Below, one piece after another: positions 1-10,682 of a stretch of 10,682 bases of DNA (within the stretch, counting starts at the first letter, position 1; every line of letters begins with the position of its first letter). The notes under the pieces are model-generated. The model was not told the DNA's origin. It saw nothing but the letters and a program-made list of their open reading frames with translations, and did no database searches. This DNA is from a bacterium (GTDB lineage Bacteria > SAR324 > NAC60-12): contig CBDDTI010000316.1 of assembly GCA_965233585.1 (NCBI GenBank), positions 1 through 10,682 of the forward strand, given 5' to 3'. The translations under genes and the position numbers were made by a program.

Positions 1-115
1 ATAGTTTGTATATTTTTCCTAAAGACTTAATATTTCAAAAAGAATGTAATTATTTTTATTTTGATAGTTTGTTTATTTTGCTAAAGACTTGATATTTCAA
101 AAAGAATGTAATTAT
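1..115. repeat. Tandem repeat of about 63 bp, at least 2 copies (may continue left of the window)
   Basis: 1-53 ATAGTTTGTATATTTTTCCTAAAGACTTAATATTTCAAAAAGAATGTAATTAT vs 64-115 ATAGTTTGTTTATTTTGCTAAAGACTTGATATTTCAAAAAGAATGTAATTAT. Confidence 0.9.
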
Positions 116-220
116 AGTTCAGTTTCATATGCTAACCATGACTTGCTTTCTGTTTAGCCAGGCGTGCGTGCTCCACGAAAGACTCCATGCGCACCTAGGG
201 AAAAACACAGAGCTAAAAAG

Positions 221-334
221 GTGCCCCTTCTGCCCTTTTGTCCTGATTGGCCTCGTTTTGTCCCTTTTGGCCCTCAAAAGTCCTTTTTGGCCTGTGTTGT
301 GGCCTTTTTGTCCTGTGTTGTGTCCTTTTTGACC
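221..334. repeat. Degenerate array of about 10-bp period (G-N-CC-N-TTT type) with a 21-bp higher-order unit
   Basis: About 11 units such as TGCCCTTTTG and GTCCCTTTTG. 282-302 CCTTTTTGGCCTGTGTTGTGG vs 303-323 CCTTTTTGTCCTGTGTTGTGT, with a partial third copy at 324-331. Confidence 0.8.
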
Positions 335-399
335 TTCGCATAAAAGGTTAAAATTCGCTGGAACTGTTTTATTTTTTGCCGAGATCTCGAACTGTTAAC

Positions 400-852
400 A
401 TGACTAAACGCGTGTGCCGCGATTGCCCGATTCCGAATTGTGGAGCAAAATATCTCGTTAGATTGTCTAATCATCTCACAGATGTACATGGATTAGATTA
501 CATAAATCGAAGGAAGTGGTTACAAGAAGCGAAATTACAACCTAAGGTTAGAGTGATGATCTATCCAGCAAAGAGGAGCCAGGGATTAAGACCTACAACA
601 AGTGAAACACCTCTATCAGTGCACGAAGAGGAAAAAGATACAATAGTCCATCATTTATCAACACCAAGAGGAGTAAAGAAATCCCTGAAACCTCTACCAA
701 AAGGACTAAAGAAATCACTGAAATCTCTACCAAGAGGCGTTAGAAAAGCAGCCAATAACATCAAACATTATAAAACAACAGCAGATTCAGTTCCTGAGTG
801 GCTCACTTTGTATGGAGACGATGAGGGGCCAAACCCAGAGAAGAGATCTTAG
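400..852 (+). CDS. Small basic protein with one N-terminal C2H2-type zinc finger and an 11-aa basic repeat (probable Polinton accessory ORF, 150 aa from ATG 400)
   Basis: CPIPNC-x10-HLTDVH finger (C-x4-C...H-x4-H); PRGVKKSLKPL/PKGLKKSLKSL/PRGVRK repeats. First in-frame ATG is at 400; the tracked TTG start at 376 is unlikely in a eukaryote. Confidence 0.65.
   Translation: MTKRVCRDCPIPNCGAKYLVRLSNHLTDVHGLDYINRRKWLQEAKLQPKVRVMIYPAKRSQGLRPTTSETPLSVHEEEKDTIVHHLSTPRGVKKSLKPLPKGLKKSLKSLPRGVRKAANNIKHYKTTADSVPEWLTLYGDDEGPNPEKRS
664..747 (+). repeat. 33-bp coding tandem repeat, about 2.5 copies
   Basis: Units start at 664, 697 and 730 (CCAAGAGGAGTAAAGAAATCCCTGAAACCTCTA / CCAAAAGGACTAAAGAAATCACTGAAATCTCTA / CCAAGAGGCGTTAGAAAA). 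Confidence 0.85.
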
Positions 853-923
853 TAACCCCGCCTGCAGTATCAGTAGCTTGTGACACTAAGCCGCGTCCCA
901 TAAGCTTCACATTTTCACTGCTT

Positions 924-957
924 TTTTTAAAGACGGCGCTCCACTTGCCGTTCAGTT
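924..957 (+). promoter_or_regulatory. Candidate core promoter of the ORF at 994: TATA-like TTTAAA plus TCAGT initiator
   Basis: TTTAAA at 926-931 lies about 28 nt upstream of the A in TCAGT (952-956), which is 40 nt before the ATG. This is canonical TATA-Inr spacing. Confidence 0.45.
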
Positions 958-993
958 TGCTGTGAAAGCTCATGCTGTTTAAACGAAAAGAAA

Positions 994-1500
994 ATGTCTT
1001 GGAGCAACGGTTATAATTACTGCCTTCTTCAACGAGGTAATGGATATTACGAAGACAGTGAAGACTCTCAATCTAGCCAAGAAACAGATTCTTCCCAATC
1101 TAGTCATGAAACGGATTCTTCCCAAGAAGTGACAGAGCACTTAAACCCTTGGTCGCGCATATTAGATGAAGCTCAGGAACGCCACGAGGTTCAGCTCAAT
1201 GCTTTGGTCGACGAGTACCAAAGAAACGGAGATTCGGAAAATGTAACTCACCTTAAAACGCAGAACGCTCTCCTTCCTCTCTACAGAAAAGGACTGAGAA
1301 AAGTACTGTTAGAGTATCTGCAGTGGATGCGAGCGATGAAGAAAGATTACACCTTTCAAAAAGTGATGGAAACGCAGAAAGATCTCAAAGATACAGATGG
1401 ATTTGATTGGTTAGAATCGACAGAACTAGCCATCGATAAGCGGAAATTCTTGCTTAATCGATTGTTTGTGAAGCAACCGATTCCACAAGATGAAGACTAA
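994..1500 (+). CDS. 168-aa hypothetical protein with an acidic Ser-rich N-terminus and a helical C-terminal domain ending in a DKRKFLL motif (probable Polinton accessory ORF)
   Basis: ATG in AAAATG context, clean ORF, and AATAAA 21 nt after the stop. The KD..FQKVMET....D.FDW.ES.E.A+DKRKFLL pattern resembles a multicopy family of marine-invertebrate hypothetical proteins that I associate from memory with Polintons (unverified). Confidence 0.75.
   Translation: MSWSNGYNYCLLQRGNGYYEDSEDSQSSQETDSSQSSHETDSSQEVTEHLNPWSRILDEAQERHEVQLNALVDEYQRNGDSENVTHLKTQNALLPLYRKGLRKVLLEYLQWMRAMKKDYTFQKVMETQKDLKDTDGFDWLESTELAIDKRKFLLNRLFVKQPIPQDED
1060..1128 (+). repeat. 27-bp coding tandem repeat (ETDSSQSSH-type), about 2.5 copies
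   Basis: 1081-1107 GAAACAGATTCTTCCCAATCTAGTCAT; 1108-1128 GAAACGGATTCTTCCCAAGAA; partial copy at 1060-1080. Confidence 0.85.
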
Positions 1501-1520
1501 GGCCATTTTGTTTTGCTCTC

Positions 1521-1526
1521 AATAAA
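1521..1526 (+). terminator. Polyadenylation signal AATAAA for the 994-1500 ORF
   Basis: AATAAA just after the stop, followed by a GT-rich element (GTGTGTTGTT, ~1552-1561). Confidence 0.55.
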
Positions 1527-2380
1527 AAAATGTACTTCAAACCGATATCTAGTGTGTTGTTCTATTGGAGTTTATTTCTTTGTCAAGGGGACTTCAGTGT
1601 TATTGTTCATTGCATCCTAATTTCCTGATTTACTTTGTGTTAAATACTTCATAGTTGTTGGAGCTTTGGTTGCCAATAAATGTGTTTTTAATTGATTTCA
1701 AATCTCTGTGTATTTGAATCATTTCGCTAATAAAAGTAATATTCACGAAACGTGTGTTGCGTTGACAATTAATTAGCGCTCCGAACTTCTATTGTTGTAA
1801 TTTCAATGGTAGAGCTGTCCGTTCGAGTTTGTCATTATGCAAATCTAGGGTTGAAAGTAGAGTTCAGTGCATGACTAACGGAGCGGAAAACTCGAGCAGT
1901 ACATTAGCTAAGAATTAATTCTCTCTCTCGTCAGCAAAACTGAGAGTTCAGATAAAAACATTAGAAAAAACAGTAGATTTTTCATAAGTCAATCAGGCTT
2001 AACTATAAGCCGGCAAGTTTCGAAAATCGAAGTACGTTTTCAAAGAAAGCTAGAGAACCTCAGAAATTATTACGCGTTCAAAAATTTGCGCTTGTCAACG
2101 TTTCCGAATCACGGACGGTTAAACAAGCGTTCAAAACAGTTTGAAATTCGCGAGCATCGGTAACGAAAGCCATCTTCACGATAATCGTTTCGAAATCGAA
2201 CAAAGTTTTCAAGTTTCCTGCGAGTTCAAGTTGAATGAAGGAATGACGCTTTCGCTGAAATTGGCGCTTTTATTTTGAATACGTAAAAGAGTTCTCATGA
2301 GCCAATCAGGGTTAATTATTAACGGGCAAGACCGGGCAAGCTAATTGTTTTTACTGTTTTAGAGCGACGCTGATTAGTAA

Positions 2381-2473
2381 ACCTAGACACTACATTAGTA
2401 TGGAGGAACCCATTTTTACCTAGACAGTTTGAATATTAATGATTGACCTAGGCACTTCATTAGTATGGAGGAA
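2381..2473. repeat. 28-bp subterminal direct repeat, two copies plus a partial
   Basis: 2381-2408 ACCTAGACACTACATTAGTATGGAGGAA vs 2446-2473 ACCTAGGCACTTCATTAGTATGGAGGAA (26/28 identical); partial ACCTAGACA at 2418-2426. Confidence 0.9.
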
Positions 2474-2638
2474 GGCAGGGAAGGTAGGGGAAGGCAAGGG
2501 AAGGCCGTGATGGGGCTTAATTCCCAACATACAAGACTACTAACACGATCCAATATAGCCCGCCACAGAAGTAAGTGATCATTAATGTGGAATTTGCATT
2601 AGGGAATTGTAAGTTATTATGTAGGTCAAGAGATTTAG

Positions 2639-2779
2639 CACTGATCCCAACGGCAGATATGACCAAAATTACAAAAAAACTATTACAAAAAAACTATTTT
2701 AACTATTTTTTTGTGAAAATAGTTTAGTCCATTATTCCGTTTTATTTAATTCTGGTCATATCCGCCGTTGGGATCAGTG
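2639..2779. mobile_element. 141-bp MITE-like element with 33-bp TIRs and CACTG...CAGTG ends (CACTA/CMC- or Transib-like termini)
   Basis: 2639-2671 CACTGATCCCAACGGCAGATATGACCAAAATTA vs the reverse complement of 2747-2779 (31/33). AT-rich core with a duplicated 14-mer ACAAAAAAACTATT. No TSD visible, so the superfamily is uncertain. Confidence 0.75.
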
Positions 2780-3020
2780 TGCCGTCTATATTTTGTATTC
2801 TAAAATTTCTACTGATCCAGGTCTACTAAAGATTTGGCACTCTCATCGGTTTGTTGCTGTGGTTATACAGATTTTGATTCCATTTGTTGTACAACTCTTC
2901 ACCACCGGTCCTGGAACACGGATCCAAACCACGGATCCAAAAGTTATTTTCTAATATGGGGATTGACCTTTGCTTATGGAGACTACGCGTTGGTTCTTTT
3001 AATTCCTCGAGACACCATAA

Positions 3021-3090
3021 CAGTTCAGTTCAGTTCATTTCATTTATTTGCCTTAACAAATTATGATTATAATAATTACAATAATAATTA
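3021..3090. repeat. Short microsatellites: (CAGTT)3 at 3021-3037 and degenerate (AAT)n at ~3060-3090
   Basis: CAGTTCAGTTCAGTTCA; ATTATGATTATAATAATTACAATAATAATTA. Confidence 0.7.
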
Positions 3091-3270
3091 TCCATTTGGT
3101 AGGCAGTCCAGGAAGCTATTTTGCTTATTTAAAGGACTGCCTTGAAGAATGGAGTAAAAATAAAAAACTAGAATGTACACTGTCCATGGCGGAACAAAAA
3201 TATTGAGACTGAAACTAAATATATATTACAAAAATTTATAATGAACCATGCGTTTAAGATAAAATAAAAA

Positions 3271-3330
3271 ACAGCGCAGCAACAACAAAAGCAAAGTAAC
3301 AACAACAAGAGCAAAACCACTGCAGCAACA
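3271..3330. repeat. Degenerate (CAA/CAG)n low-complexity tract
   Basis: ACAGCGCAGCAACAACAAAAGCAAAGTAACAACAACAAGAGCAAAACC. Confidence 0.6.
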
Positions 3331-3360
3331 CTGCGTTCTCGAAAATCAACGAACGCTTCC

Positions 3361-3597
3361 TTCAGCAAAAGGAAAACCCGTCAACACGATATTTTACACG
3401 TTCTTTTTCTCTTGCATTGGTTCCTCTTGTTTATTTACGCTACATCCACAAATAACTCAAACGGAGCTTCAACTCAGTTGTTTAACATCTCCCTCGACAA
3501 CACTATTGTCACGCCAGAAAATACAGCTTCTAAATGTATCTACTGTCCGCGTGCCTACCATCTACTGCTCTGCATGGACGTCGAACGAAATCCCAGA
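3361..3597 (+). pseudogene. Possible 5' remnant of a non-LTR retrotransposon ORF ending in a broken 2A-like motif
   Basis: A hydrophobic segment (ILHVLFLLHWFLLFIY) is followed in frame by YHLLLCMDVERNP-R (LLLCMDVERNP at 3562-3594), matching LLLxGD(V/I)ExNPGP up to the NP. The sequence then turns AT-rich and stops at 3615. Confidence 0.4.
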
Positions 3598-3911
3598 TTT
3601 CAAAATATCAAATAAATCAAGCACTGTAGTTAGAGTTTTTTGGTTAAATAACAATTTCATTTGGCGCTGATGATGAAAACAGACAAATTAAAATTAGATT
3701 AAGAATCATATAAACCTATACAAGAAAACTATATTACACTAGCTCCGGCCTATTACATCCGCGATTATCGACAAAGGTGAGACTATATTACAAAGTCTAA
3801 CTGAGTTGGAGTGGGCAAATAAAGAAAACCCCGTTAAATTAGTCCTAAGGTAATGCAGTAATGTATGACGCAGCACTGATTTCTCCCTTCGGGTTACGAC
3901 ATTAGTGTATA

Positions 3912-4530
3912 CAGTCAAACTTGTATTAGGCGGACATCCTCAGGCTCGGGACCCGTGCTGGTGTCCGCTTAAAACAGGGTGTTTGTTGTAAGCAGCTTCC
4001 CCCAGAATTCGTCTTAAAAGGGTCATTAATTATCAAAAAGCCTTGAAAGGGTCAAATATCATTCTCTTGAATGGTCCACAACTCTGAAATACCGTATTGC
4101 CATAAACAATGACAAGCATACGAGGCAAAACGATTTAAGGATCTAGTAACAGGATCTATACTGATCGAATAATGTGCTGGTTCACAAAATCAAACAAGAG
4201 CAAACGTTCTGTAAAAACAAAGCCGAACAAATAAGATTTGCATTTCTGTGACAGCTCTTTGTCGGCAAACTTAAATGACCGATCTATTAAAAGGTGGACG
4301 AAATAACATGCAGTCTCTTTTGCAGTGTCTGTTTGATACAGGTTTCTAGCAATAGAAATGACCATAAAAGTCAAGTTTAAGTTGTCCGCGTCCGCTTCAT
4401 AGAGGTTTTCGTTTGAATACAGGTATATTTTACAGTGAATGTAGAAAAAGAAAAATAATTGACTTGCTCTGTTGTCCGCTTATGGAGGGTGTCCACTTAA
4501 CATGGGGCCCGCTTAATACAGGTTTGACTG
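3912..4530. mobile_element. 619-bp non-autonomous Tc1/mariner (pogo/Tigger-like) MITE
   Basis: 24-bp TIRs: CAGTCAAACTTGTATTAGGCGGAC (3912-3935) vs the reverse complement of 4507-4530 (21/24). Left flank TA, right flank CA (probably mutated TA). Subterminal GTCCGCTT(A) motifs at ~3963, 4390, 4474, 4491 and 4507. Confidence 0.85.
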
Positions 4531-5417
4531 CAAATGGGACATAACAAATGTCGATGCTAGACTTACAAAACGATACATTGATTATCTTACACAAAAGCAA
4601 AGAGGTAAGCTAGATAGTCTGGATACATTTCTAGCCATTACATAAATATGAAAATTCAGATAGTGGTTGCTGGGTCGCATATAGCGATATCTTCCCTGGC
4701 TCAAGAAGTTCTCTCTTTTCTGTTCCTCAGTTAGGATCGACCAGAGAACTCCATATCATATGAAAAAGAAACAGCCGACCAAATTATAGAATTGTTCTTT
4801 CTTCTTTCTTAAGAGTAGACTGTAATTTCATCTTGGTCTCTTTTGAAGCTCGTTATGTACAATTAATTATCAGCAACAGGAAACTTTCCTCAAACTTGGT
4901 CAATGGCGGAAGTGTGTCCCTTTAAGTAAAAGCTTTAAAAATGAATACAATACCTTTCGTAAGTTGCTATCTTAATCTTAATTCTTGCTTTTTCTTACGT
5001 TACAATGACATCTATCCAACAAAGCCGTGTTTGTGATGCTACTTAATATAATTCACATCCTGATCGCTATTAAAATACGCATCGAAATCGCAAGCTGACG
5101 GCGAACAGTGTTAAGTTGTTAATGTTACTAAAACGCCAAGTTTGTTTCTCTACCGCTAACTAATAATTCCAGCTTCTTGACTTATTTCTGTAAAGACATC
5201 TCTTTCCCAAAAATAAGTGAAGTAAACACCTTGATTAACTAGCTCTTCATGATATTTGAGCCACATGCTCCCCTCATCTCTGTCCAAGGTGGACAATAGC
5301 AATTGCACTAACAGCTGATCCCGTTCTCAAAGTGGACTCAGGTTGAAGCTGACGGTAGAGTAGTACGTTATAGATAGATTGCAAGCTCGTCATTGAACAC
5401 AGAAGTCGAACTATGTC

Positions 5418-5952
5418 TAGGGCTGCAACGATACATTTTCTAAGGATACGATACAGATCTCGATACAAGTGCCACGATACGATACACGATACGTATCTTA
5501 GTTCCGAGTAACAATGGCGACAAATTACGATTTCTTTTACAACGTTCCTTACCCCTTGGGCATCGTAAAGTACTTTAAATCCAAAGTCTTTCCACACCTT
5601 TGGTTTAAACGAGGACGGTGCCGGTTGTAACTCAACGGAGGAAGACATTTTGATGAACGAACTGTATGCATGCGTTCATGCCGCCATCTTGAAAAGTACG
5701 TGATCGAAAGCATGCGAAGCGACACTAAGCAAGGACGAAGCCCTGTGGCTAAAAAAGGCTTGTACTTGGGTAAGGAGTCAATAAACTGATTAAAACAGTA
5801 ATTTCTGAATGTTGGTAAAGTAATTTCTGATTTTTGATGAGGAATATTTTTTTGTTTTGCGATACAGCGACATCCCATTCAAATATCGATATTCGTATCG
5901 TGGCAAAAAATATCGCGGTTCACCGATGCACCGGTGTATCGCTGCAGCCCTA
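5418..5952 (-). mobile_element. 535-bp non-autonomous hAT element (Ds-like internal deletion derivative)
   Basis: 18-bp TIRs: TAGGGCTGCAACGATACA (5418-5435) vs the reverse complement of 5935-5952 (17/18). Perfect 8-bp TSD ACTATGTC (5410-5417 and 5953-5960). Many subterminal CGATAC/GTATCG motifs and an internal transposase fragment. Confidence 0.95.
5493..5648 (-). pseudogene. N-terminal fragment of a ZBED1/Ac-like hAT transposase (truncated BED zinc finger)
   Basis: MSSSVELQPAPSSFKPKVWKDFGF...IVICRHCYSELRY has the BED pattern VWxxF...CxxC. The second half (HL..H) is missing; the frame runs directly into the subterminal repeats. Confidence 0.85.
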
Positions 5953-6379
5953 ACTATGTCTAGTCAACTGCATGGAGCTTTTGGCTTTGTGCATGGGTCT
6001 TGACCAAAATGTGATCACATGACAAGATGCTGGACGAGAGTGCTAACAATCTTGAGGCTTCACTCTAGAGACAAATAAAAATACAAGGAAGACGCTTTCA
6101 AAATCTCTATATAACTTGGTCCGAATAGAAATATGAGTTATCCACAGAGCTATAGAAAGCATTCAGTTGAAATTTATTTTGAGATTCCATCACACCCTAT
6201 AAAGCTAGCAGCCGTAATCGTTATCAGTATTAAAGTCTACCAAAGATATACATTTAGCGGAGATGCTGTAATTATACGTCCTCTGGAAATGCTGGCTTTT
6301 GGGACAAACATTCGGTCAACTCCCTTTGCCTATTGGTGCACATATGTTGGGGGAAGGGAGGCTTTCGCACTTAACTTAG

Positions 6380-6760
6380 AGGGGCTAGGTCACGCTATTT
6401 TGGGCAATTTCAGCACGGATCAAACGGTCATAGAATTAACTTAAATATCAAAATAACGACTCAAAACAATAGTAGAACTCTAACAAAACACAGCCAAGCC
6501 AAGAAGAGACATGGATGAACAAAACTGGAGAGGATTAAGCTAAATTGCTTTTGGGTAATTTGAAAAACGGCAGCCCTCCTTTTTTCAAATTCATATCAGT
6601 TTATATCAAAATCATTATTTACACAGCTGGAAAATCATTCTCAGCTGTTATGTGGTCGTGATTTTGCAAATAATAGACTATTGCTCTGCCAATTTGACGT
6701 TTAGAGCTCATAATTGACAAAATTAAACAAAATTACCTAAAATAGCGTGACCTAGCCCCT
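6380..6760. mobile_element. 381-bp Kolobok-like MITE (TTAA target, AGG...CCT termini)
   Basis: 31-bp TIRs: AGGGGCTAGGTCACGCTATTTTGGGCAATTT (6380-6410) vs the reverse complement of 6730-6760 (29/31). Right flank TTAA (6761-6764), left flank TTAG (6376-6379; one change from TTAA). Purine-starting ends argue against piggyBac (CC ends). Confidence 0.85.
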
Positions 6761-7142
6761 TTAAACAACACATTTGTAACGTAAACGCCCTTCCACCAAC
6801 CCCTTTTAACCGCAGTTGAGAGCCAGTCAGTATCTCTCCACCTTCGTTCCGGAGGCTTTCTGGTCGAAGCTGGTCTTCCATACATCATTAATAGAAATAA
6901 CAGGACAGAATAAGACAGAATTATACGACTGGTGTGTGTATCGAATCTATAAAAGTAAGTTAAGAACACAATAAATATGGAATACCTGTTGTAAGAAGTT
7001 GACTGATTGTTGAAGATTTTGTGGTGTGTGGAAGCAGAAACGAGTAAGTGTGAAATGTCCAAATCTTTACCTCATACAAGCCTGAGAATGCTTAAAGAAC
7101 TGCTGAATAAAGAAATTACCTTAATAGCTTTTGCAAATGATC

Positions 7143-10100
7143 TTACTTCTTCTTCTCCTCCACCATCTTTGTCTTGGTCTTCTTCATCATTTCTTCACAC
7201 ATGAACGTGATAGATCTTTCTTTTCCCTCACTGAGTCCCTGCATACCTCGCGCGATATCCAAAGGATTCTTTCCATCTTTATTGCGCATCTTTTTCCATT
7301 TCAGTGGCTTATAAAGAGGAAACAGCTTCCGGAAGGAAAATTTGGACATTGAAAGAACGCAATGATGCAGAGCTGTATTCCCATCATCGTCCACACTTTG
7401 AACAGAAATTGCGCTACCACGTCTTGTGAAAGTGGGGACTAATTTTACATTTCCACTTTTTATTGCCACAGACAAAGCGGACATTCCTGGAATCAGTCCT
7501 TTTGTGGCGTAGGGGTTTCTGTCGAAGTTTTGAGGCAGCTCACAATTGATATCCACCTTTCTTGTGGTGATTAAGTACTGGAGCACATGAGGGCTCATGG
7601 AGGGCAAGGAGCAAGCTTTCAGGATTGCATTGAAACCTTTCTCGTCCTTCGCCTGTAGCTGATCAGTGGTGAAACGCGCAAGCTTCTCTGCTACGTACTT
7701 CATTGTGAGGTCGCTACTGCCTGTTGTCTCCCCGTCTTTTCTACTACTGGTCTGCAGATTCCTAAATTCCCCCCAAAGACTGACGATATCTTTTGTGACG
7801 TCGTTGGTTCCTTCCGTATATCTGGGATCGTCATTTCTTGCAACTCGTTTTCTTCCCAAGGTCTCTTTATCCTCGCTAACAATGCTGACCTGGCATTTAC
7901 GGTGAACTTCCTCAGATCTGTCTTGTACAGAACTGGAAACATTCATTTTCTCTGAAGCCATCTCTTCTTCTATATGTACCGAATCCATAGAATCTATTCT
8001 AATTAAATCGATCGCTTTGCTCTTGTTTTCGAATTGGCTTGCGACGGCCTTAGCTGGTTTGCTCTTTGTTCCAAAATTTTGGAAGTGCTTAGGGCTGCTT
8101 TGCAATGGAGAAAATCCTTCCTCTATTATGATTACTTCGTCGCATCTCTCTGGCAATAAACTTTCCATTCGTTGATTGCAGTCGTCATTGGTTTTACGTC
8201 GCTTCATCTCGACACTGTCATCAAGTGATTCTCGAAGGGATCTCTTCATGCTTTTCTTTTCTTTGCTAATGAATTGCGTGTTATTGGGCAACGAAATTCT
8301 GTCCATTCTTGGCTCGTTCGTGATATTCAATAGACTGTTCTCAACTGTACTGGTAATATCCGCTTGATAATCCTTATCCTCTTGCGGGAAGGAAGCCTGG
8401 ATTAGAATGTATCGCAAACGATGTCTCTTTGGGTCAGCGGCGGACAGAATGGTATATTTGGAGTTTCTGTCTCTCATTTCGCGGGAGAAAAATATTGCTT
8501 TTGGTATGGTAGATTTAGTTAACTTCATTTCAGGCCACTCTTCAAGTACCTCCTTAGTACTTGTCACGGTAACAATTTTCTCCTTGGTGCTGCAAAATCT
8601 TGATGTTAAAAGCTCAATGTCGTTAGTTGTGAGATTTCCAACAGAAAACGAAAGAATGAAAACCGAAGTTCCTTTGGCAGCAGGCTCCTGCTTTGCTTCG
8701 ACTTCTTGAACTATTCTAGCGGGAGAGACTGTGTCTTTAAACCTTTCTTCTTGAGCATATCCAATGCATCCCTTGAAACACTTCTCAGGACCCTGAGTGT
8801 TGACAAAGTTACGAAGGTGTTCCAGGATTATACTCTCTTCAAACTCTTTGGGTAGCTCGCTCACAAGTGGTCGTTCCGCAAGAATGCTATCATCTCTCCA
8901 TTCAAAGATCTTTGGTGGTGCAAGGCTGTTGATCCAATCTTTGTACTGAACTTTGAGAAAACTGTAACGGTTGCATTTCACTACCCAGAGACCAGCTTTA
9001 TCGCAATCGTCATTGAACCGTAGGTCTTCCCAACAAGGCCATGGACGATAGAAAACACTCTTTTCGACGGTACTCTTGACATTCACCAAAACAGCAGCGT
9101 ACACTTGGGTTCTTGAAAATGGAGTTACTGCGACTGGAACACTTCTGATAAGACCTAGTACTCCGTAGCTCTCATGTTGCTTGTTTCTAAACAGCTTGGC
9201 AGGACCGGTGTAGCTATACAGTGGAAACTCTTGAGATTCAAAGTGGTCGGTTAAAGGATGGGGCTCATATTGTGTCTTATCGATTGGTGGAATTTCCTTT
9301 CCCTCCGCGATTTTCTGAAGATGGCTGAGTGGCTTGAGGAACGAACAGCGTTGCATCTTCATCGCACCCTTCTCGTCCCTTAGAACTCTTTCGGTGGGCG
9401 AAGACGGGTCTTTCCTGAATACTGCTTCGGACATCACTACCACGTTGTCATCTATTACAAAGATGTATTCCAGATTTAAGGCAAATGACATCTTCTGAAT
9501 GAAAAGCCTTGCATACCCCACTCCTCCTTCATTTGGTCCAAGCTCACAGTTGGGCAACGCATCTGGCAGTTGGACAATGTTAAGAACCTTTCCCCAAGTG
9601 GATCTGTAAGCATCGAATTTTTCTTTGCGAACAACAGTTACTTGTGCGTAGGCGGGGACTTGTCCCTTCTCTTGCATTACATGGTGGTAATTCAAGGTGC
9701 ACTTGCGAGGATCGTCCCTGTGTGAAGCATGAAAGATCCAGAAAGGTGACGATAAAGGATTGAGCTCTTTAGTAGCCTCCTCTGTTAAACTTGTGCTCTT
9801 CAGCTGTTCCAGCAAGTGTTTAAACGATTGGCTGCTGCTTGGGACGGAACATTTAACACTAACTGGTATACCATCGATGCTAACTTTGAAGGTCTCCAAA
9901 GCTGGGCCTTTTCCTTGAAGAAGTCGTCCACAATCGACACATTTTTCGAAGTGGTACCAATGCCAAGCTCGTAAACCCTCTGCACATTCTGTTTCCTGGT
10001 AATGGTGATCAATCGCCTTCTTATCCTGTTCTGGGTTCACAAGGGTGTTAGGACATTCCTCCACATCATGTGTATAGAAGCATCCCTCAATTGAGTATTT

Positions 10101-10682
10101 TACCGATGCTACTGGTTCATCATACAGGCTTGGAGAATCTTTGATCGTCTTCCAATAAGGAAATTCCCAGTCGTGCTTTTCACCTGTGTCACGGACCAGA
10201 AATTCTTGGGAAAAGCGGTTCTCTTTGTGGCAGTAAAAGATACCATCTTCAAATGCAGGTGTTGCGGAAAGGGGAACTTTTCCACAGATATCCCGTCGCA
10301 GTTCTCTTATGAGGCAAAGGTACGCACCCGTCTTGCCTATCTGGGGCTCTGCGTGGAGAAGGATTCTGTTGCAATGCTTCTTTACGTTTTGATAATCGTA
10401 GCTATCCTTTTGAGCTTCATAGTCTAGCCAACGCAAGGAAGAGCACTTCTGGTCTTTGCGTCTTCTGCTCTTTGTCATGTATCGATCCGCTTTCTGACAA
10501 GAAATGGCATTCATCGAAGGAGATGTTTTCAGTGACGTTTGAAGCGTCTTGAACAGCACTCGCCCAACCAGTACATAAGGCGTCTCACTGGCAGAGGACT
10601 TAGAGTAACGACACATTCTTCCCAACTCTTGAATGATGGTTGAAAGATGGAGTGACGAGCCTTCTTTGAACTCGCAACTGCT
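7143..10682 (-). CDS. GREB1-like protein (circularly permuted SF2 helicase remnant + TAGT/GT-A glycosyltransferase + C-terminal ankyrin repeats); 5'-partial, runs off the window
   Basis: 1160-aa ORF. Upstream of the tracked TTG the frame stays open to the window edge (SSCEFKEGSSLHLSTIIQE-LGRMCRY), so the true start is outside. Motifs, in order: QELGRMCR (SF2 motif VI), ILLHAEPQIGKTGAYL (like GREB1 PQIGKTGAYL), YHFEKCVDC, IFHASHR, VVRKEKFDAYRSTW, GGVGYAR, IFVIDDN, YGVLGL, PFSRTQVYAAVLVNV, WEDLRF..AGLWVVKCNRYSFLK. These are collinear with the GREB1 C-terminal region as I recall it. Orthology to GREB1/GREB1L is not established. Confidence 0.9.
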   Translation of the reverse strand, partial: SSCEFKEGSSLHLSTIIQELGRMCRYSKSSASETPYVLVGRVLFKTLQTSLKTSPSMNAISCQKADRYMTKSRRRKDQKCSSLRWLDYEAQKDSYDYQNVKKHCNRILLHAEPQIGKTGAYLCLIRELRRDICGKVPLSATPAFEDGIFYCHKENRFSQEFLVRDTGEKHDWEFPYWKTIKDSPSLYDEPVASVKYSIEGCFYTHDVEECPNTLVNPEQDKKAIDHHYQETECAEGLRAWHWYHFEKCVDCGRLLQGKGPALETFKVSIDGIPVSVKCSVPSSSQSFKHLLEQLKSTSLTEEATKELNPLSSPFWIFHASHRDDPRKCTLNYHHVMQEKGQVPAYAQVTVVRKEKFDAYRSTWGKVLNIVQLPDALPNCELGPNEGGVGYARLFIQKMSFALNLEYIFVIDDNVVVMSEAVFRKDPSSPTERVLRDEKGAMKMQRCSFLKPLSHLQKIAEGKEIPPIDKTQYEPHPLTDHFESQEFPLYSYTGPAKLFRNKQHESYGVLGLIRSVPVAVTPFSRTQVYAAVLVNVKSTVEKSVFYRPWPCWEDLRFNDDCDKAGLWVVKCNRYSFLKVQYKDWINSLAPPKIFEWRDDSILAERPLVSELPKEFEESIILEHLRNFVNTQGPEKCFKGCIGYAQEERFKDTVSPARIVQEVEAKQEPAAKGTSVFILSFSVGNLTTNDIELLTSRFCSTKEKIVTVTSTKEVLEEWPEMKLTKSTIPKAIFFSREMRDRNSKYTILSAADPKRHRLRYILIQASFPQEDKDYQADITSTVENSLLNITNEPRMDRISLPNNTQFISKEKKSMKRSLRESLDDSVEMKRRKTNDDCNQRMESLLPERCDEVIIIEEGFSPLQSSPKHFQNFGTKSKPAKAVASQFENKSKAIDLIRIDSMDSVHIEEEMASEKMNVSSSVQDRSEEVHRKCQVSIVSEDKETLGRKRVARNDDPRYTEGTNDVTKDIVSLWGEFRNLQTSSRKDGETTGSSDLTMKYVAEKLARFTTDQLQAKDEKGFNAILKACSLPSMSPHVLQYLITTRKVDINCELPQNFDRNPYATKGLIPGMSALSVAIKSGNVKLVPTFTRRGSAISVQSVDDDGNTALHHCVLSMSKFSFRKLFPLYKPLKWKKMRNKDGKNPLDIARGMQGLSEGKERSITFMCEEMMKKTKTKMVEEKKK
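7250..7650 (-). other. Ankyrin-repeat region (about 4 repeats, some degenerate) at the C-terminus of the large CDS
   Basis: DEKGFNAILKAC..VLQYLI..VDIN; GMSALSVAIKSGNVKLV; DDDGNTALHHCV; NKDGKNPLDIA all fit the D-x-x-G-x-T-P/A-L-H-x-A consensus. Confidence 0.85.
8944..9747 (-). other. TAGT (TET/JBP-associated, GT-A fold) glycosyltransferase domain within the large CDS
   Basis: N-terminal strand-S-x-R (PFWIFHASHR, ~9718-9747), GVGYAR (~9507-9524), acidic hhhhDD motif (IFVIDDN, DDN at 9444-9452) and C-terminal ED motif (WEDLRF, 9015-9032). Boundaries approximate. Confidence 0.85.

Follow-up and report, generated by a model that had tools for sequence, protein, structure and literature searches.

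What is encoded by the long open reading frame at one end of contig CBDDTI010000316.1 (assembly GCA_965233585.1), and on what would its product act? The stretch analysed, hereafter the window, comprised positions 1 to 10,682 of this contig. On its minus strand, the frame at 7143–10682 ran for 1179 codons with no stop or frame break and closed with TAA at 7143–7145; its 5′ end was open, the gene running past the window. By a hand estimate at a G+C content of ~44%, the chance of a 1179-codon frame was ~1e-30. The encoded protein (P0001) is a GREB1-like helicase and a TAGT glycosyltransferase (GT) joined in one polypeptide. We tentatively read 7143–10682 as the 3′-terminal coding stretch, at least 3.5 kb and unbroken, of a stony-coral gene, which would belong to a coral-specific, multi-copy GREB1-like branch and work by the mechanism proposed below; as a whole, this account is held with a little less than even confidence.

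A preliminary description of the frame had listed superfamily 2 (SF2) helicase motifs, a GT-A domain, a charged linker and about four ankyrin repeats. All of these were found, except that the helicase was represented by its C-terminal ~135 residues with one motif, and that a conserved alpha/beta domain at amino acids (aa) ~635–800 had been omitted. The circularly permuted SF2 helicase end (aa 1–135; 10278–10682, minus strand, as are all domains of the frame below) matched Pfam cpSF2-GREB1 (PF20692) over aa 31–132 and profile positions 602–705 of 716, at 103.9 bits where 26.2 is the cut-off. The Walker A sequence QIGKTG (aa 114–119, bases 10326–10343) was the single helicase motif within the window, and DECH and SAT would lie upstream. 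The same profile was matched over its full length by full-length coral members (444–750 bits). Among 121 such members, DECHWG was found in 118, SATP in 120, and QIGKTG together with the GT-domain motifs DDN and WEDL in every one.

The GT domain (aa ~301–634; 8781–9782) matched Pfam TAGT (PF20691) over aa 349–433 at 31.1 bits, above the cut-off of 27.5. Its motifs were GGVGYAR (aa 386), DDN (aa 411–413; 9444–9452), YTGP (aa 491) and WEDL (aa 551), the last lying within WEDLRFNDDCD (aa 551–561; 9000–9032). Across the alignment of 58 relatives the DD pair never varied, and conservation of the ED pair was 90% or higher, in keeping with the earlier statement that these acidic motifs are intact. An AlphaFold model of aa 140–830, built from the alignment of the 58 relatives, had a mean predicted local distance difference test score (pLDDT) of 80.7 and a predicted template-modelling score (pTM) of 0.72, and pLDDT exceeded 90 over most of the GT domain. 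The DD pair (model residues 272–273) directly followed a beta strand (267–271), as in GT-A enzymes.

When this model was searched with Foldseek against viral models, 29 matches were obtained at E ≤ 1e-3, with phage TAGT proteins leading (E 3e-8, target template-modelling score (TM) 0.45–0.60) and a phage glucosyl-HMC glucosyltransferase among them. Against PDB, 8 matches reached E ≤ 1e-3, those named being structures of COLGALT1 or of the COLGALT1–LH3 complex; the best GT-A match had E 5e-6, and LH3, K4CP and GnT-I were among the matches of weaker E. A search of the ESM Atlas with residues 1–660 gave no score above 0.79, a lead only, which pointed to a phage TAGT cluster. Profile scores and model agree on the GREB1-like/TAGT identity that had been put forward.

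In structure, the GT model came closest to the phage TAGT proteins, members of the same Pfam family (E 3e-8 to 1e-5, target TM 0.43–0.60), but those among the matches listed are stand-alone proteins of ~230–310 aa, and identity in the structural alignments was 7–15%. The GT-A fold and a metal-binding DxD are common to the coral domain and its best PDB matches, COLGALT1, LH3 and GnT-I (E 5e-6 to 9e-3); with 9–12% identity, low TM and protein or glycan substrates of the secretory pathway, however, they are alike in fold alone.

On the N-terminal side of the GT domain lies an inter-domain region (aa 136–300; 9783–10277) with the His/Cys element HWYHFEKCVDC (CVDC at aa 248). The consensus built from 11 distant relatives again showed an H...CxxC pattern, and the AlphaFold model was partly confident across the region; judged from its residues, the element may be a small zinc-binding knuckle. 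An N-terminal zinc-binding domain is described for human GREB1 (PMC7968844). On the C-terminal side is the post-GT domain (aa ~635–800; 8283–8780), a confident alpha/beta part of the model over aa ~635–765, which had no Pfam match and no named family. It was present in the coral members and also in two proteins of the sister lineage, scoring 77 bits in P0074 and 21 bits in P0075. Some Foldseek matches were to Rossmann-fold methyltransferases, but they came without alignment coordinates, a Pfam match or a glycine-rich S-adenosylmethionine motif, and a methyltransferase assignment was rejected.

The rest of P0001 consists of a linker and a tail. The linker (aa ~801–985; 7728–8282) is variable, charged and rich in Ser, Glu, Lys, Arg and Asp, and contains a motif like a bipartite nuclear localization signal (NLS), KRSLRESLDDSVEMKRRK, at aa 813–830; from aa ~777 onwards the model had a pLDDT under 50. 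The ankyrin-repeat module (aa ~986–1150; 7233–7727) has ~4 repeats and is preceded by a conserved helix at aa ~961–982. A profile of the tail gave 11 matches in PDB, all 11 to ankyrin-repeat proteins. A separate model of aa 930–1179 (pLDDT 84.5, pTM 0.81) consisted of one long helix followed by 4–5 helix pairs, which makes "about four repeats" a fair count. Foldseek returned 97 PDB matches for it at E ≤ 1e-3; among the matches listed, all contained ankyrin repeats or designed ankyrin repeat proteins (DARPins), with target TM up to 0.76. An ankyrin tail, as first described, was thus recovered by both profile and fold.

The tail was present in 146 of the 148 coral-type proteins that extend 350 aa or more past the GT domain, P0042 and P0043 being the exceptions by the local tail profile. 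A further 14 coral-type proteins stopped earlier, without the tail, and may be truncated models. By comparison, it was found in 0 of 88 non-coral relatives; these were the 91 other GT-bearing proteins minus three scoring ones, which were coral fragments with a partial GT domain. In the 23 non-coral relatives scanned by Pfam, no ankyrin match was obtained at E ≤ 1e-3. In the sister proteins P0074 and P0075 the chain stops directly behind the post-GT domain, indicating that linker and ankyrin repeats are an addition of the coral lineage. The frame had previously been taken for a divergent, lineage-specific paralogue; lineage specificity holds for the tail, but the protein is not a single paralogue, since 162 of the fetched proteins were coral-type. 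One non-coral relative (P0099) had a ZZ zinc finger (residues 1817–1856) at its end in place of ankyrin repeats. Protist relatives (P0066, P0067 and P0068), from the cryptophyte Hanusia phi in EukProt and among JGI/ENA proteins, had helicase and TAGT in 920–1240 aa and stopped with the GT domain, without ankyrin.

A word-indexed search with P0001 gave 67 proteins, the named ones from Desmophyllum, Stylophora, Oculina, Acropora and Orbicella, plus a weak match in the cryptophyte Hanusia phi. All of the named coral relatives carried the label "uncharacterized" or "hypothetical". No identical protein was among the 67; the best match was P0002, with which P0001 was colinear over all 1179 residues (P0002 residues 331–1505) at 91% identity, and the named relatives of highest identity (60–64%) were from Oculina, Desmophyllum and Stylophora. 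A profile search brought in Porites and Montipora, and full-length coral forms were ~2100–2435 aa long. Every named protein among the 162 of coral type was from a stony coral, and the architecture was common to robust and complex corals. When 1.84 billion representatives were searched exhaustively with HMMER, 289 matches were obtained at E ≤ 1e-3, 142 of them at E ≤ 1e-10. The coral tier was 45–91% identical to P0001; the next tier (27–39%) aligned solely to aa ~2–640, that is, to the helicase end and the GT domain. Searching with the sister protein P0075 returned itself and coral proteins only.

A GT-domain tree of 122 rows was rooted at the midpoint, leaving out the near-identical P0022–26 and P0028–30 and matches covering fewer than 250 profile columns. 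The coral proteins formed one clade of 45 rows (Shimodaira–Hasegawa-like approximate likelihood ratio test support 98), with P0074 and P0075 as its sister (support 99). Proteins of ~1950–1980 aa fell in another branch, which under midpoint rooting is weak evidence on orthology to vertebrate GREB1. Several loci were found per species: Stylophora pistillata had four or more, including a pair on one contig, and Acropora digitifera and Acropora muricata had three each. In Oculina patagonica, six gene models lay on one 64.4 Mb chromosome. Among other proteins of the family, three sets of four had longest contigs of equal size (676,566, 925,964 and 993,971 bp). Copies apparently sharing a contig or chromosome suggest tandem arrays. 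The coral branch is coral-wide and multi-copy, rather than one lone paralogue.

Two gene models of this branch carried an additional domain. P0013 (Stylophora pistillata LOC111318964) had an N-terminal OTU cysteine-protease domain (residues 49–152, 42.7 bits), either a real fusion or a gene-model join; as a trait of the family, OTU fusion was ruled out, occurring in 1 of 321 fetched proteins. P0016 (Oculina patagonica ACROYT_G016884) began with a reverse-transcriptase fragment (residues 17–162, 77.8 bits), probably because the gene model had taken in a retroelement.

Conservation was compared by region, as mean identity to P0001 residues across 135 coral homologues. It was highest in the GT domain (68%) and the helicase end (65%), followed by the ankyrin module (53%; 43 of its positions reached 90% identity or more), the inter-domain region (48%), the post-GT domain (37%) and the linker (23%). 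Taken with the motif counts, this pattern suggests that purifying selection acts on the motifs of both transferase and ATPase and keeps a binding surface of the tail fixed.

The combination of cpSF2 and TAGT is already known as a family, and the coral sequences are public as uncharacterised proteins. Iyer and co-workers reportedly defined TAGT and GREB1 in 2013, and their account might mention cnidarian members. In the literature on coral or cnidarian GREB1 or TAGT that was searched, supplements lying outside that search, no description was found of the coral branch with its post-GT domain, linker and ankyrin tail. The suggestion that the novel part lies in the architecture was upheld to that extent.

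How does this architecture compare with that of characterised relatives? In animal GREB1 and GREB1L, too, one polypeptide of ~2000 aa carries a circularly permuted SF2 helicase and, after it, a TAGT domain (PMC7968844); the coral family differs in its conserved post-GT domain, long disordered linker, ~4 ankyrin repeats and many copies per genome. In that paper the human helicase is called catalytically inactive, whereas DECH, SAT and GKT are kept in corals, a difference that sets the two apart by description. A further comparison is with the kinetoplastid base J glucosyltransferase (JGT). JGT glucosylates 5-hydroxymethyluracil (5hmU) made in DNA by JBP1/2 (PMC11065753), whereas the coral gene has no JBP or TET in the adjoining 7.1 kb. 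In window 1–7142, none of the 25 stop-to-stop frames of at least 60 aa reached a Pfam cut-off and no TET/JBP was found, which says little, this being 7.1 kb on one side of the gene. The GT domain of JGT was reportedly placed in the TAGT family by Iyer and co-workers in 2013, the family to which the coral domain belongs. Phage TAGT genes adjoin TET/JBP genes; such linkage is not known to be required of eukaryotic TAGT members.

On these grounds the following mechanism is proposed. Judged by its close relatives, the full protein would be ~2100–2400 aa long, and its order would be a cpSF2 helicase (DECH, SAT, GKT), the His/Cys element, the TAGT GT-A domain, the alpha/beta domain, the disordered charged linker and ~4 ankyrin repeats. 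The GT domain would be an active transferase dependent on a metal and a nucleotide sugar, and the helicase module would bind nucleic acid or chromatin in an ATP-dependent manner. The basic motif of the linker would carry the protein to the nucleus, and the strongly conserved ankyrin tail would dock a conserved protein partner, which could be a substrate or a targeting factor. Going by these sequence features, proteins of the P0001 type probably act in the nucleus. By analogy with characterised relatives, a protein target seems somewhat more likely than a DNA-base target, and is put slightly ahead of it because the one animal relative tested, human GREB1, is reported to O-GlcNAcylate estrogen receptor alpha via its GT domain (PMC7968844) and because base J is reviewed as apparently absent from metazoa (PMC11065753). 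A DNA target is kept in play because the nearest structures of the GT model are DNA-modifying phage enzymes and because the helicase motifs are kept.

Several points weigh against this account of a nuclear coral transferase. This copy may be incomplete, as its promoter, its N-terminus and the core of its helicase would fall past base 10682. The TAGT match covered part of its profile (positions 32–113 of 205), and the query-normalised Foldseek TM was low (0.17–0.25), with a model that spans several domains. In P0001 itself, Pfam Ank_2 (aa 1032–1111) scored 27.0 bits, 0.3 bits short of the cut-off of 27.3, which other family members passed (P0069 36.5, P0027 30.3 and P0002 28.0 bits). We take KRSLRESLDDSVEMKRRK to be a putative bipartite NLS solely from its resemblance to that motif pattern. 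Finally, a review states that metazoan JGT homologues were predicted to be catalytically inactive and gives base J as undetectable in metazoa (PMC11065753). The intact motifs in corals argue against such inactivity, short of proving activity.

Could the substrate be DNA itself? In that case a sugar would be placed on 5-hydroxymethylcytosine (5hmC) or 5hmU in coral nuclear DNA, in the manner of JGT and phage TAGT enzymes, with the helicase engaging DNA and the ankyrin tail targeting the enzyme to chromatin. We consider this unlikely, although the closest structures to the GT model were phage TAGT proteins and the glucosyl-HMC glucosyltransferase, helicase ATPase motifs were kept in 118–121 of 121 full-length coral members, and a basic bipartite motif lies within the linker. 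The characterised non-animal family members also act on DNA (PMC11065753). The same review reports base J to be apparently absent from metazoa and gives no glycosylated DNA base as known in animals, and the sole animal member tested is reported to act on protein (PMC7968844). Moreover, no TET/JBP or other Pfam family appeared in the 25 frames of window 1–7142, and nothing in the ankyrin tail, a module for binding proteins, points to DNA recognition.

The question bears on more than this locus. GREB1-type enzymes descend from DNA-base glycosyltransferases, and what is said of their role in animals comes from one report, of O-GlcNAc transfer to protein. With many copies and near-perfectly kept motifs, the coral family is a natural test of animal DNA glycosylation or of a second cytoplasmic/nuclear protein glycosylation; its conserved ankyrin tail offers a handle for partner pull-down, and recurrent "uncharacterized" coral genes would gain a name. 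At its boldest, the idea is that stony corals glycosylate oxidised pyrimidines of their own or of invading DNA by a many-membered helicase–TAGT family, the ankyrin repeats tying it to a conserved chromatin or defence partner. This we regard as a long shot; if true, animals would have, in coral DNA glycosylation, their own equivalent of base J or of the hypermodified cytosine of phages.

A role in conflict with viruses or mobile elements, in which the helicase senses foreign nucleic acid and the GT is the effector, would fit the several copies that species carry, in many cases apparently on a shared contig or chromosome, the variable linker and the OTU protease domain of P0013. We find it improbable: neither the GT domain nor the ankyrin tail has diversified, both being strongly conserved, OTU occurred in just one of the 321 fetched proteins, and equal contig sizes were read as the same contig by inference.

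Similarly improbable is a plain coral orthologue of animal GREB1/GREB1L, in which the cellular role is unchanged and the ankyrin tail amounts to a minor decoration of the lineage. The full-length cpSF2-GREB1 match of the coral members fits such an orthologue, as does a domain order equal to that described for GREB1 (PMC7968844). In the tree, however, the coral clade grouped with P0074/P0075, P0081 and P0105/P0111 and not with the ~1950–1980 aa branch (weak evidence, given the midpoint root), and several copies per genome are unlike a single-copy gene. That P0001 is a non-functional copy or mobile-element cargo, whether a duplicate in decay or a piece of a transposon, is very improbable in spite of the many family copies, the reverse-transcriptase domain joined to one Oculina gene model and two inverted repeats downstream resembling miniature inverted-repeat transposable elements (MITEs), for its 1179 codons are unbroken, its catalytic and structural motifs are all intact, it is 91% identical to P0002 over the whole frame, and the flanking frames hold no transposase or other Pfam family.

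The remainder of the window (1–7142) contained short frames only. Two adjacent plus-strand frames, of 166 aa (352–852) and 189 aa (931–1500) from stop to stop, may be exons of a neighbouring gene, and neither reached the cut-off of any Pfam family. The 166-aa frame showed a Cys/His pattern, CRDCPIPNC...HLTDVH; the 189-aa frame had a repeat rich in Ser, Gln, Glu and Asp (a 27-nt direct repeat at 1066–1119) and then a helical-looking part. The two MITE-like inverted-repeat pairs, with arms ~90% complementary, were located at 2639–2779 (arms of 40 nt, 61 nt apart) and at 6376–6764 (arms of 35 nt, 319 nt apart), the latter sitting ~380 bp downstream of the P0001 stop codon.

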